From: Promethearchaeota archaeon
GTDB lineage: Archaea; Asgardarchaeota; Thorarchaeia; Thorarchaeales; Thorarchaeaceae
Length of the DNA: 64,000 nucleotides
Assembly: GCA_014728035.1 (NCBI GenBank)
Contig: WJMJ01000131.1
Coordinates: 1-64,000, forward strand
Reading direction: 5' to 3'
Part shown: one piece after another, positions 1 to 6,130 of the stretch
How the letters are laid out: each line of letters starts with the position of its first letter
How positions within the stretch are numbered: position 1 is the stretch's first letter
The notes under the pieces: generated by a model
What the model saw: the letters and a program-made list of their open reading frames with translations, nothing else
Told to the model about the DNA's origin: nothing
The model's database searches: none
Position numbers and translations under genes: made by a program

Positions 1-110
1 AAACATACTGTCCAAACCGTCGATTGTAAAACACAGCCACATAACTCAAGAGGTTTCTCAATCGACATCTTGTGGAATGTTTTGCGTAATCTCGGTAAGA
101 GAGAAACATG

Positions 111-232
111 GAAAGAAAAGGAGTGCGAAAAGCGGTTAACGTTCTTCGGTTTGTTAATGTTAAACTAATGAGCGTAGATACAGCGGTGTATAACCACGGG
201 TCCTGTTTCCTCAAATTCCTTGTTACCAAGAT
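111..232 (-). repeat. Diverged direct-repeat copy of the actin 3' end, 3' UTR and terminator (relic/att-like)
   Basis: 158-221 matches 972-1035 at 54/64 nt and translates on the - strand as KEFEETGPVVIHRCI versus actin [15 protein letters not shown]. 111-147 (aaagaaaaggag..gaaaagcg-gttaa-cgttcttc) matches the actin terminator at 930-965. Confidence 0.9.
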
Positions 233-295
233 ACTCTCCTGAATCTCAAGAGAGATATAAGGAAATGCACATACTAATGAGTGAGGCCAATCTTC

Positions 296-526
296 ATGGG
301 AAATAGACTGATCGTTACAGACCCAGAGGTCATGATGGGAAAACCAGTGATTACCGGAACACGAATCACAGTTGAGATGATCTTGGACAAATTGGCAGCA
401 GGAGAAACCATCGACCAGATTCTAGAGGATTATCCTCAGTTGACCCGTGAATCGATTCTCGCAGCACTGTCCTTCGCGGCTGATGCCATGAAGACAATCA
501 CTGCATATCCGACTGAGGCGTCCTAG
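296..526 (+). CDS. DUF433 family putative antitoxin
   Basis: IVTDPEVMMGKPVITGTRITVEMILDKLAAGETIDQILEDYPQLT matches the DUF433 signature. An alternative GTG start lies at 281. Confidence 0.9.
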   Translation: MGNRLIVTDPEVMMGKPVITGTRITVEMILDKLAAGETIDQILEDYPQLTRESILAALSFAADAMKTITAYPTEAS

Positions 527-528
527 AG

Positions 529-885
529 TTGTGAATACTTGCGGACGAATGTATCGAGCAGAGTATAGTACAGAGTCTCAGAGAAAATGGTTTCAAAGTA
601 GATTACATCCTTGAATCCGCACCAGGATCTACAGACTCGACTGTACTCTCAATGGCCGAGTCTTCCCGCTCTATCTTGATGACTGCAGACAAGGACTTCG
701 GTGAATTGGTGTATCGTCAAGGGAAAGCTCATCATGGAATAATCCTGGTTAGACTGCATGGAGTTCCTAGAGAAAACAAAGTAGCAATACTAACTACAGT
801 GTTGAAAGAGCACGAAGGTAAGTTGGTAGGAGCTTTCACTGTTGTTGAACCAAATCAGGTCAGAATCAGTAGACCATCTGCATGA
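529..885 (+). pseudogene. DUF5615 PIN-like toxin with disrupted start (TTG-TGA-ATA-CTT-GCG-GAC-GAA)
   Basis: The frame of ORF 652-885 extends upstream as ILADECIEQSIVQSLRENGFKV..., the typical DUF5615 N-terminus, and continues to ILMTADKDFGELVY...HHGIILVRL. There is an in-frame TGA at 532-534. Confidence 0.7.
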
Positions 886-929
886 TAACATAGAGTTCAC
901 GGGATATCTTACACTCTAAGCGAGTTGAG

Positions 930-965
930 AAAAGAAAAGGAGAAGAAGAGCGGAAGTCGCTCTTC
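930..965 (-). terminator. Hairpin plus pyrimidine/U tract terminator of actin
   Basis: GAAGAGCG-5nt-CGCTCTTC stem (945-965) followed on the - strand by TTCTCCTTTTCTTTT. Confidence 0.7.
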
Positions 966-987
966 ACGTTGTGTTAAACTAATGCGC

Positions 988-2157
988 TTAGATACACCGG
1001 TGTATTACTTCCGGTCCTGCTTCCTCGAATTCTTTCCTTGAGACCCACATTTACCAGGCTGCAACAGGAATTGCTGCAACATTCTGGAAGGTCTTCAAGG
1101 ACGCAAGAATTGAGCCACCGATCCAGACGGAGTATTGGCGCTCAGGAGGAGCAATGATACGGACCTCGATGTTCTCTGGGACGAGTTCGGAAATCTCTTT
1201 GTGGAGACGTTCCTTGAGTCCTGGGAACATGGTGGAACCGCCGGAGAGTACGATGTTAGCGTACAGGTCACGTCGCAAGTCAACGTCACAAGACTTGATA
1301 GCCTCGACAATGTGTTCGTCAAGAGGAATGGAGTCAAGTCCGATAGCGCTTGGGTTAAAGAACAGTTCAGGGGCCTGGAATCGCTCAGCACCTACAGTGA
1401 TAACCTCACCGTCGGGGAGCATGTATGGTTTATCCACACCAGCTTTGTCAGCAACGGAGCGTTCACGCTCGGGGTCAAGGGCAATGTAACATAATTTCTC
1501 CTTGATATCTCTGACAATTTCTTTCTCAGCACCGCTTACGAATGCATAACCTCTCTGACGGAGAAGTCTGCGCAAGTATTCGGTGATGTCTCGACCAGCC
1601 AAGTCAATACGTTTGATTGCGTGGTTGATTGAGAAACCTTCGTATACAGGAACGATGTGAGTAACACCGTCACCAGAGTCGATAACCAGACCAGTGGTTC
1701 TTCCGGACGCGTAGAGTGACAGAACAGCCTGTGTAGCCACATAGACTGCAGGGACGCCAAAGCTGTCAAACATGACAGAGGCCATACGTTCTCTGTTCTC
1801 TCGTGGGTTGAAAGGAGCTTCAGTCAGAAGGACTGGATTCTCACTAGGGTCAACTTTGAGGTCATTATAGAACGTGTATGACCAGATTTTTTCAATTGCA
1901 TCCCAGTCATCAACGACACCGTGTGTAATAGGATAGACTAGTCGAAGAACACCACGGAGGTTAATTGCCTCCTCACCAATGTAATAGTCACGTGTGTAGT
2001 GATCGACGTCAGTCATAATAGACTCATAACGTGGATAACCAATGAGTGTTGGCCATACACTGCGTGGTTGGTCCTCGCCTGCATATCCGTTTTTGCTCAA
2101 ACCAGTGCCATTATCAATGACAACGGGTTTGGCACCAAGAAATTCATCTTCAGCCAT
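988..2157 (-). CDS. Asgard actin (lokiactin-type); exon 1 2157-1082, exon 2 1051-988; 379 aa if spliced
   Basis: Motifs [58 protein letters not shown] and [13 protein letters not shown]. The conserved C-terminus [20 protein letters not shown] lies in frame after the TAA at 1051-1053. Confidence 0.95.
1052..1081 (-). other. Putative 30-nt bulge-helix-bulge (tRNA-endonuclease-type) pre-mRNA intron
   Basis: RNA reads CCAG-AA^U-GUUGCAGCA-AUUCC-UGUUGCAGC-CUGG-UA^A: a 4-bp central helix, two 3-nt bulges and a 9-bp intron stem, plus exon-exon pairing. Excision gives TTC CAG AAA ATG TGG (FQKMW). Confidence 0.85.
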
Positions 2158-2230
2158 TTTATTTCGGTCCTCGCTTTGTGCAAGTCACAGAATCTAGATT
2201 CTTAACGAGAAGTCTCTGTGTTACTTAACG

Positions 2231-2250
2231 ATACGCTTGAGCGTATTTAA
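2231..2250 (-). promoter_or_regulatory. Actin TATA-like box (TTAAATA) overlapping a 7-2-7 palindrome
   Basis: ATACGCT-TG-AGCGTAT at 2231-2246, with TTAAATA on the - strand at 2250-2244, about 90 nt upstream of the actin ATG. Confidence 0.5.
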
Positions 2251-2500
2251 GCCTTGTCTGGATTGGTTCGAAAAATCGACGTTTTTCATTAGATATATAT
2301 GATATATATGTATGTATTGTTTTTAATTACGCATCACAGAACCGCCGTAGAAGGCTAAGAAATACGAAATAGTATTACGAAATCAGGTATTCGAAAACCC
2401 CCAGTAACATATATATTGTTATTATATGTATCTATGGAATGAATTCCTTCACGGAGGATCACTCCAAAGAACCCACAGAATCCGTTAGGAGCACCATACG

Positions 2501-3295
2501 ATGATTTGGAAACCAGCCGACCAACTAGTACGAGAGGAAGTAGAGTCAGTACGAGCAAGAAGAGTCATTCTTGACCAACTAGAGAGTGGTTCCAAGACTG
2601 GGAACGAATTAAGAGAGGCAATTAGAAAAGATATGATGGCACTAGCTGTAAAATCCGGAGTGAGAAAACCGGATCCGGCAGATTATGTAGTAACAGACCC
2701 AAAATTGTATTTTAACACAAAACACCTAGAGAATATAGGTCTGATTCAGAGTCAGAAAGTGTCCAAGCAAAGAGTTTTCCAACTTACACCCCCAGCAATT
2801 CAGCCTGTGCGAAGAGTACTTGAAATCACAAGGAAAAATATTCTGATTACTTCACTTGTAGAACCTGCTGACGCACGACCACTTATCGGATGGTATTGCA
2901 AGGAGAGAAGGTTTTCATTCAAGCAGCTTCATGTGGTGGTTGAGATGGAGAGGTTTCAACGAGGGGTTTCAAAGAATTTAGAGAGATATATTCCTGATGG
3001 AAGCATAAGGAAAATACGTGATCAATGGCATGAGCTCCCTCTCGAGATTGCAGGAGAATTTGGCGGAGGGAAACAAGGAGATCTTCGTTTAACATATAAC
3101 GCATTAGAAGCAATAATCTTTCAAGATATCAGAGAGTATAATATCATTCTTGATGGTTCATTAGGTCCACCAGTAATCAGCATGGCAATGATGTTGCTAT
3201 CGTCACATTACTCATTAGACATGATATATGTCAGAGAATATGCGGGGAAGGATTCCGATATTCAGAGGGTAACAGCTTTGGAGGTGGTAGATTGA
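2501..3295 (+). CDS. Winged-HTH protein with C-terminal CARF-like domain
   Basis: N-terminal ArsR/PadR-like wHTH (RRVILDQL...KLYFNTKHLENIGLI...RVFQLT). The C-terminal IILDGSLGPPVISMAMMLLSSHYSLDMIYV resembles the CARF motif D-x-T/S-x-G...YV. Confidence 0.55.
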   Translation: MIWKPADQLVREEVESVRARRVILDQLESGSKTGNELREAIRKDMMALAVKSGVRKPDPADYVVTDPKLYFNTKHLENIGLIQSQKVSKQRVFQLTPPAIQPVRRVLEITRKNILITSLVEPADARPLIGWYCKERRFSFKQLHVVVEMERFQRGVSKNLERYIPDGSIRKIRDQWHELPLEIAGEFGGGKQGDLRLTYNALEAIIFQDIREYNIILDGSLGPPVISMAMMLLSSHYSLDMIYVREYAGKDSDIQRVTALEVVD

Positions 3296-5535: not shown

Positions 5536-5587
5536 AGAACATACTCCCGATGATGGATAAAAGAATAGTAGTATATAAGACAGCCCG

Positions 5588-6130
5588 TTATTCGATTTGG
5601 AGAGGTTGATGTTGCTTGATTCTCCCACGGGATGTAGAGTAACTCAAAGGATTTCGTGTAATCATTGACTGGCAATAACGGTCGGATTGACAGAGACCCC
5701 ATTCTTGTAACCAGCTACAATTCGGAGTGCCTTTTGATTTGTAAAAGGGAGGTTCAAGTAAATGAACTCGAACGAGAAAATCCACTACAACTCGGATTTG
5801 CTTTCGGACGTATGCGATTCTAATACAGGGAGGTGCTCTTCGTAATACCGACCATCGAATCATCTTAAAGAGGTCATACCACAATAGACATTCTTTTTCC
5901 TTGTAAAGGAAATCACAAGAAACACAAGCTTGTTCGTGTTGTGAAAGATTGCAAAATTGAAGCCTTGATTCTTCTACAAGACCAACATCGCGTAGCAGAT
6001 GAAAATTGATTTCAACAAACCAATCGGGATTGAAAGAGCCAAATTCTGTAATGAAATCATGAAGTTCTTCTGCTACAAACGAGGAGTCTTCAAGCCAGTA
6101 TTTGGAAGATAATTCGGACGAGTTTGACAA
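5588..6130 (-). CDS. Cys-rich protein resembling the primase large subunit (PriL) C-terminal Fe-S domain
   Basis: APPCIR ... TPNCSWLQEWGLCQSDRYCQSMITRNPLSY follows the PriL-CTD pattern PPC...PxC-x2-L-x3-GLC-x5-C...NPL-x-Y. Confidence 0.5.
   Translation of the reverse strand: MSNSSELSSKYWLEDSSFVAEELHDFITEFGSFNPDWFVEINFHLLRDVGLVEESRLQFCNLSQHEQACVSCDFLYKEKECLLWYDLFKMIRWSVLRRAPPCIRIAYVRKQIRVVVDFLVRVHLLEPPFYKSKGTPNCSWLQEWGLCQSDRYCQSMITRNPLSYSTSRGRIKQHQPLQIE

Follow-up and report, generated by a model that had tools for sequence, protein, structure and literature searches.

A probable bulge-helix-bulge intron in the messenger RNA of the single conventional actin gene of a Thorarchaeota archaeon

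The interrupted actin gene

The window analyzed here is the whole stretch of 64,000 nucleotides (nt) at positions 1 to 64,000 of contig WJMJ01000131.1 (GenBank assembly GCA_014728035.1), which belongs to a Promethearchaeota archaeon of the Thorarchaeaceae. On its minus strand it encodes an actin whose reading frame is interrupted close to the 3' end by 30 nt with the features of an archaeal bulge-helix-bulge (BHB) intron. The actin open reading frame (ORF) runs from 2157 to 1054 and encodes 368 amino acids, ending at a TAA in positions 1053-1051 according to the ORF list and the translation; beyond this stop, in the same frame, lie 20 codons of the conserved actin tail (1050 to 988), the first of which is ATG. 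A previous sequence-only reading of the locus had pointed out this early stop followed by the tail in frame, and coordinates and translation agree on it.

The ORF matches the Pfam Actin profile (PF00022) with an E-value of 1.4e-121 over profile positions 5-390 of 410, meaning that the C-terminal end of the profile is absent from the 368-residue product. Taking out 1081 to 1052 joins exon 1 to exon 2 as TTC CAG AAA ATG TGG (FQKMW) and yields a full-length actin of 379 amino acids; the excision of exactly these 30 nt, as originally proposed, holds, and 24 intron-less orthologues are collinear with the resulting protein. Over residues 1-360 exon 1 is 99% identical to the actin of Thorarchaeota isolate BC, and the amino acids of exon 2 are identical to the tails of several intron-less orthologues, including that of a relative from the same genus (G001; the genome of the window is referred to as G000 and other related genomes by further G numbers). 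A search of the genome gave one other actin-like match, only 38% identical. Judging from these comparisons, the interrupted gene is the single conventional (lokiactin-type) actin of this organism. The entry for the gene in the NCBI nr database is exactly the 368-residue ORF, whereas in its 90% cluster the majority of the members listed have 379 amino acids and are named actin, evidencing that the putative intron was overlooked in public annotation.

RNA structure of the insert

For the 77-nt stretch around the insert, ViennaRNA predicts the BHB fold as the one of minimum free energy (-30.8 kcal/mol), compared to a mean of -17.3 kcal/mol for shuffled sequences (z = -4.78; none of 200 shuffles was as good), and the fold persists when 301 nt of context are folded. 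All the pairings drawn in the sequence-only reading, namely the central helix, the bulges, the 9-base-pair (bp) stem and the outer helices, are present in this fold (Table 1). The central helix is exactly 4 bp long, with 95.8% of its cells paired over the six sequences in which the insert occurs (see below). In all six a 3-nt bulge separates the central helix from the intron stem at the 5' site, reading AAU but AAA in G009, and the central helix is flanked by both an intron helix and an exon-exon helix, all 13 pairs of the latter being formed in G000. At the 3' site, which reads UAA, UGA or AAA, closure depends on a single invariant U-A pair, separated by a 3-nt bulge from a 6-bp helix; this imperfection of the exon helix next to the bulge had also been noted at first sight. 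Because of its G-U pairs, the intron stem is specific to the sense RNA strand. In precursors of transfer RNA (tRNA), nucleotide 32 pairs with the intron three bases ahead of the 3' site. In the actin insert each bulge lies on the 3' side of its central-helix strand, which is the orientation of pre-tRNA, as checked against this rule and against the tRNA introns of the same genome.

A self-splicing ribozyme (group I or II intron) was considered and rejected, as no Rfam match at E <= 1 was obtained in positions 1-3000 of the window and 30 nt are far too short for such an element. A repeated DNA element, such as a hairpin of the miniature inverted-repeat transposable element type, was also discarded, since a blastn-short search of the genome finds the actin copy only.

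Table 1. Coordinates of the actin gene, of the predicted intron structure and of related features. Positions are those of the window unless a genome and contig are given.
Feature	Position	Strand	Remarks
Actin exon 1	1082..2157	-	ATG at 2157 to second base of 5' bulge; residues 1-358 and two bases of Lys359
Outer (exon-exon) helix, 5' strand	1088..1101	-	UCCUUG (1101-1096), bulged A, AGACCU (1094-1089), U
Central 4-bp helix, 5' strand CCAG	1084..1087	-	end of exon 1; pairs with 1054-1057
5' bulge AAU	1081..1083	-	predicted cut after A1082; position from BHB substrate rule
Putative BHB-type intron, 30 nt	1052..1081	-	layout: 1 nt (third bulge base), 23-nt hairpin, 4 nt (CUGG), 2 nt (UA)
Intron hairpin	1058..1080	-	9-bp stem 1080-1072/1066-1058 with two G-U pairs; pentaloop AUUCC 1071-1067
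Central 4-bp helix, 3' strand CUGG	1054..1057	-	within the predicted intron; from fold and covariation
3' bulge UAA	1051..1053	-	in-frame stop codon; predicted cut after A1052
Outer (exon-exon) helix, 3' strand	1035..1050	-	A1050, GGGUCU (1046-1041), CAAGGA (1040-1035)
Actin exon 2	988..1051	-	third base of Lys359, then 20-residue tail; TAA at 990-988
Putative terminator-like hairpin GAAGAGCG-ACUUC-CGCUCUUC	945..965	-	in the actin 3' untranslated region (UTR); seen in the 301-nt fold
BHB insert in ahcY	G000:C103:93771-93801 (L151 1272-1302), outside the window		central helix CUAG/CUAG; bulges UGA and AAA
BHB introns in tRNA genes	G000 contigs C9, C25, C82, C151 (e.g. C9:171745, C82:4682, C9:91775, C25:214894)		

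Presence and absence among related genomes

The 3' part of the gene was searched in 40 related genomes and the junction could be read in 30 actin genes, that of the window included. Six of these (G000, G015, G013, G009, G023 and G020) carry 30 extra bases at the same site, with an in-frame stop, and the other 24, G001 among them, lack exactly these 30 nt and read uninterrupted through ...LKTFQKMWV(S/T)(R/K)KEF.... Excision according to the BHB rule gives 379 amino acids in each of the six carriers, which is also the commonest length among the intron-less genes. In the alignment of orthologues the insert therefore behaves as a discrete 30-nt character located exactly at the predicted splice borders. 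A pattern scan of 86 genomes of the family retrieved the same six carriers and none further, while a similar scan of metagenome contigs gave five matches, one of them real; being near-identical to G015, it adds no diversity.

Three of the carriers match differently named public assemblies or metagenome-assembled genomes (JARGGA010000034.1, CAZSWP010000013.1 and CAYWJO010000001.1). The occurrence of the insert in six genomes, three of them with such counterparts, and in one metagenome contig makes an assembly artefact unlikely. A search for sequencing runs with the locus yielded no RNA run. Two marine-sediment DNA runs from one study contain a 59-kb contig that belongs to a relative, differs in 61 of about 1,170 aligned letters and lacks ~30 nt at the site; as this contig represents an intron-less relative, the runs give no independent view of the insert. 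An apparent second interruption near the N-terminus in G010 and G028 was rejected, since it corresponds to TTG start codons.

Covariation and selection

Covariation was counted on an alignment of the six carrier sequences. Overall, 89% of the structure cells are paired, a share that falls to 36-47% if the 3' partners are displaced by 1-3 columns, and none of 500 shuffles attains the observed pairing values. The 9-bp intron stem has 96% of its cells paired and the exon-exon helix, with 12 pairs, 81%; the outer helix averages 10.7 pairs in the intron-bearing genes versus about 7.8 in intron-less members of the family. Changes on both sides were found in six pairs, two out of four in the central helix and four out of nine in the intron stem, the most evident being the central helix of G023, which is UCAA/UUGA as opposed to CCAG/CUGG in the others. 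RNAalifold predicts the same structure on its own. The conserved BHB pairing with compensatory changes that would be expected in orthologous inserts, if the reading of the insert as an intron is correct, is thus present in these six sequences.

The two sides of the predicted 3' splice site evolve differently. In exon 2 the pairwise codon differences among the six carriers amount to 148 synonymous versus 5 non-synonymous, and 16 of the 20 codons vary, yet only one amino acid changes; as synonymous changes far outnumber non-synonymous ones, it can be concluded that exon 2 is translated. Read as codons, the insert shows 24 synonymous versus 70 non-synonymous differences, a pattern which, together with the covariation, indicates that it evolves as an RNA helix and not as a peptide. 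By these counts, strong purifying selection acts on the 20 codons downstream and not on the insert.

Splicing enzymes and introns of the same design

The genome encodes two genes of the EndA family (PF01974), to which the tRNA-splicing endonuclease belongs, and the ligase RtcB (592 bits), so that both an endonuclease and a ligase are available to the host. One of the two EndA-like genes, EndA alpha, matches the catalytic alpha subunit of Aeropyrum pernix best (3P1Z_B, E 7e-42), and its segment over A. pernix residue 44, the lysine of the Crenarchaea-specific loop, aligns without gaps. The Tyr, His and Lys of the motifs VY, DHAPF and VRKKF, which we take to be the catalytic triad, are conserved in EndA alpha. 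The second EndA-like gene has an Asn where the catalytic His is expected in the alignment to the M. kandleri chain and would fit, as expected, a structural beta subunit. The Crenarchaea-specific loop confers broad specificity on A. pernix EndA, which cuts relaxed, non-canonical sites (PMC3241643), and an (alpha-beta)2 EndA with this loop, named L1, has been reported for Asgard archaea (PMC5829648).

The same architecture is in use in the tRNA genes of this genome. ARAGORN detects only 35 tRNA genes in the raw genome; the removal of inserts with BHB geometry (26-32 nt, with two in some genes) uncovers or repairs at least 14 tRNA genes. Six of these inserts are exactly 30 nt long (Met 59/60, Gly 53/54, Lys(UUU) 53/54, Ala 20/21, Phe 59/60 and Glu 37/38), and many are located at non-canonical positions (10, 20/21, 45/46, 53/54 and 59/60). 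Their layout is that of the actin intron: one base, a 23-nt hairpin with a 9-bp stem and a pentaloop, four bases complementary to the exon end, and two bases. An A-Y-U-Y-C loop is common to several of them and to the actin intron. ARAGORN is unfit for testing splice borders because it tolerates a 4-nt shift of the excised segment, and the restored T-loop was used instead: in tRNA-Gly(CCC) and tRNA-Lys(UUU) only a cut after the second base of the bulge restores G53-T54 (...GG/TTCRAATCC, the slash marking the junction), by which the BHB cut rule is confirmed in this genome.

A second protein-coding gene on the same contig, ahcY, contains a 31-nt frame-breaking insert with BHB geometry, the removal of which restores both the sequence GHPSEVMD and the frame. 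According to alignment lengths, this insert is present in G015 and absent in G001, G009, G013 and G023. Separately, a duplicated ahcY tail was observed in G015 about 1.2 kb downstream of the gene.

A genome-wide scan for BHB motifs, which had been suggested together with the intron, showed no enrichment over a mirror-image control: the counts were 1697 vs 1666 for stems of at least 7 bp, 508 vs 498 for at least 8 bp and 172 vs 169 for at least 9 bp. A filter for inserts whose removal merges ORFs recovered both actin and ahcY but retained 144 vs 140 in the control, equally without enrichment, and gives no census of introns in messenger RNA (mRNA).

Proposed processing and alternative explanations

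In the proposed mechanism, the CCAG at the end of exon 1 would pair with the CUGG near the 3' end of the intron, with the 9-bp hairpin and the exon-exon helix on either side, and the heterotetrameric (alpha-beta)2 endonuclease would cut after A1082 and A1052, the second base of each bulge. RtcB would then join the exons as ...UUC CAG AA/A AUG UGG..., removing the in-frame UAA and allowing the 379-residue actin to be made; in the predicted spliced junction CTTCCAGAA is followed directly by AATGTGGG. The 30-nt intron would probably be released, perhaps in circularized form.

Taken together, the anatomy of the insert, its exact presence or absence, the covariation, the selection on exon 2, the enzyme genes and the tRNA introns of identical design support the interpretation, first advanced from the sequence of the window, of a tRNA-type intron processed by EndA and RtcB. 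We consider it highly likely that the 30 nt at 1081-1052 are an archaeal BHB intron in the mRNA of the single conventional actin gene, and full-length actin very probably requires the cutting and rejoining of this mRNA by tRNA-splicing enzymes.

Several points weigh against this interpretation. The cleavage and ligation of the actin mRNA are steps that we infer, and the UAA located directly before an AUG also permits termination and reinitiation. The covariation rests on six sequences, which are related to each other, and in one of these, G009, the central helix contains an A-G and the stem a C-U mismatch. The 3' bulge is clean only if the lone U1088-A1050 pair forms; otherwise the site is a 1x7 asymmetric loop, as the energy model leaves it. 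Closure by this single U-A pair, with a further 3-nt bulge before the outer helix, makes the motif a relaxed one, similar to the bulge-helix-loop (BHL) type. Finally, as the loose BHB descriptor is not enriched in the genome, the shape alone is not diagnostic and it is the comparative evidence that carries the case.

The adjacent stop and start codons would also suit a split actin in which the RNA remains unspliced and a 368-residue body, with a 10-residue neo-tail, assembles non-covalently with a 20-residue piece (MWVSR...HRCI) translated by reinitiation at UAAAUG. In all six carriers the stop abuts the AUG or lies 3 nt from it, and the selection on exon 2 attests to its translation only, not to its joining to exon 1. 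Still, a split protein leaves unexplained the compensatory changes in the 4-bp helix and the 9-bp stem, the spacing of the bulges, the lack of protein-level constraint on the insert (24 vs 70) and the identity of its architecture with that of the tRNA introns of the genome, and the frame-breaking insert of ahcY restores GHPSEVMD only if it is excised as RNA; a split actin is, in our view, very unlikely. Recoding, in which the stop is read through to give a 10-residue insertion or the ribosome hops over part of the insert, would profit from the fact that 30 nt is a multiple of three and keeps the frame. Yet the peptide encoded by the insert is unconserved and, as read from the sequence, no matching take-off and landing codons flank it; moreover, four carriers have UAA as the stop and two have UGA, and in G023 it is placed one codon earlier, which excludes a single dedicated recoding signal, and we give this explanation hardly any credence.

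It might also be argued that the gene is a decaying or non-functional allele that the cell tolerates, cut short when a small DNA hairpin element was inserted, considering that public annotation carries the 368-residue ORF and that a second, distant actin-like gene (38% identity) is present. Against such decay, the amino acids of exon 2 have been kept over six lineages in spite of variation at 16 of its 20 codons, the insert occurs only once in the genome, none of the six genes bears other lesions and actin is conserved at 379 amino acids across the family, which leaves this possibility at the margin of what is believable. The interpretation of the insert as a BHB intron is followed in the next sections.

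Gain, loss and recombination of the intron

In a maximum-likelihood tree of the actin coding sequences (CDS), which follows taxonomy, the carriers are not grouped, and within each of the sister pairs G000/G001, G020/G005 and G023/G008 only one genome has the intron; well-supported branches of the tree imply at least three gains or losses. The six introns appear clearly homologous to one another.

Between G000 and its same-genus relative G001, divergence in the actin gene rises from 4.4% in the first 1020 nt to 17.9% in the final 117 nt (Fisher p = 6e-7). The divergent stretch comprises positions 1020-1137 of the spliced CDS, about 988-1135 of the window, where G000 is closest to G015, from another genus, to which it is identical from -20 to +22 around the junction; the actin 3' UTR of G000 is again of the G001 type. 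This suggests that a recombination patch of ~100 nt from another lineage brought the intron into G000 (or that such a patch removed it from G001). The pattern of divergence may be reinforced by selection on exon-exon pairing; the differences between G000 and G001 extend past the pairing region. Mosaic identity profiles were also observed in other sister pairs.

On a wider scale, it can be speculated that BHB mini-introns of ~30 nt move among tRNA, ribosomal RNA and protein-coding genes in Thorarchaeota and spread by short-patch homologous recombination, that the tRNA-splicing machinery routinely matures the mRNAs of core genes (actin, ahcY), and that intron retention could gate the production of functional actin. 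This scenario is tentative and, taken as a whole, somewhat doubtful. If it were true, the tRNA-splicing machinery of a close relative of eukaryotes would routinely take part in the maturation of core-gene mRNAs.

Related systems and implications

A BHB intron in crenarchaeal cbf5 pre-mRNA was reportedly described by Watanabe in 2002. The precedent documented in the literature found is this intron in the pre-mRNA of cbf5 (pseudouridine synthase) of Crenarchaeota (Yokobori 2009, PMC2738675), the only archaeal protein gene for which such a case was encountered, in agreement with the initial remark that mRNA introns of this type are known mainly from crenarchaeal cbf5. As in actin, a short BHB intron lies within the ORF and its removal by the tRNA-splicing endonuclease and a ligase is needed for the full-length protein; the distribution is patchy, with precise lineage-specific loss, and the hosts possess a broad-specificity (alpha-beta)2 EndA. 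Unlike cbf5, the present case concerns actin, a eukaryotic signature protein, in the Thorarchaeota among the Asgard archaea, with the intron located 20 codons from the stop and found in 6 of 86 genomes of the family. For cbf5 there is experimental proof of splicing, whereas splicing of actin is deduced from sequence.

Introns in Asgard tRNA genes have been described in a preprint (10.64898/2026.10.13.758758), the text of which contains neither "mRNA" nor "actin", and in a study on Atabey/Freyarchaeia whose passages on introns deal with tRNA genes only (PMC11291895). The non-canonical BHB/BHL tRNA introns known from Thermoproteales and Asgard archaea are another related system: the actin insert is identical in architecture to tRNA introns of this genome, and the same enzymes would act on both; in contrast to tRNA introns, the host RNA of the actin insert is an mRNA and its exon-exon helix is coding sequence.

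Outside archaea, the HAC1/XBP1 mRNAs are spliced by IRE1 and a tRNA ligase (Trl1 or RtcB) in a stress-regulated manner. They resemble the actin case in that cuts at paired stem-loops, independent of the spliceosome, are joined by a tRNA ligase and change the C-terminus, and differ in that the endonuclease is IRE1, not EndA/Sen, and that the process is regulated by stress. A further BHB site, in an mRNA of Haloferax volcanii, is presumably not an ORF-interrupting intron that restores a reading frame, unlike the actin insert. The likeness to actin lies in the action of EndA on an mRNA; EndA is reported to cleave this site, which lies in a 5' UTR (PMC7714728).

Full-text literature searches, with most subscription journals outside their scope, turned up no description of a BHB intron for actin or for any other protein-coding gene of Asgard archaea, and novelty is accordingly unproven; within the same scope, the earlier statement that no example in actin was known stands. 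The comparative evidence presents the actin insert as a real feature, an added case of EndA-type pre-mRNA introns in a noteworthy gene and lineage.

If the actin mRNA is spliced as proposed, this lineage would mature mRNAs through EndA and RtcB in the ordinary course of gene expression, which bears on debates over how interrupted genes originated. Such genes are cut short by gene callers, as illustrated by the 368 vs 379 amino acids of the nr entry, and Asgard proteomes and inventories of eukaryotic signature proteins may consequently hide errors of this kind. In addition, close relatives that differ in the intron, together with the apparent recombination patch around it, constitute a natural experiment and offer a route to study how BHB introns arrive, an issue left open by the census of Asgard tRNA introns (10.64898/2026.10.13.758758).

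Copies of the actin tail in the neighborhood

Positions 126-222 of the window are a direct copy, ~84% identical, of 940-1032, which spans the last ~47 nt of the actin CDS, the 3' UTR and the putative terminator; the copy is located 0.75 kb downstream of the gene. Between the two tail copies (281-885) there is a toxin-antitoxin-like pair, DUF433 and DUF5615, the DUF5615 ORF being without a canonical start codon, and the layout of tail copy and cassette is the same in G001. The arrangement resembles what an att-type duplication at a hot spot of insertion would leave. By eye, the relic copy at 126-222 seemed to contain the 3' end of the intron (CTTGGTAA), which was rejected on alignment with G001.

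In G009, three more copies of the actin tail, each of 126 nt, are found downstream of the gene (L157, G009:C13:23500-34300, at 1786-1911, 2904-3029 and 5568-5693). The tail copies bound cassettes of 1.1, 2.7 and 4.6 kb, which include an MNT/HepT pair, a transglutaminase-like gene and a 916-amino-acid ORF of no known family; no integrase was seen. The relic copies of G009 display the codon pattern of the intron-less allele (CGC AAG GAG), unlike the resident intron-bearing tail.

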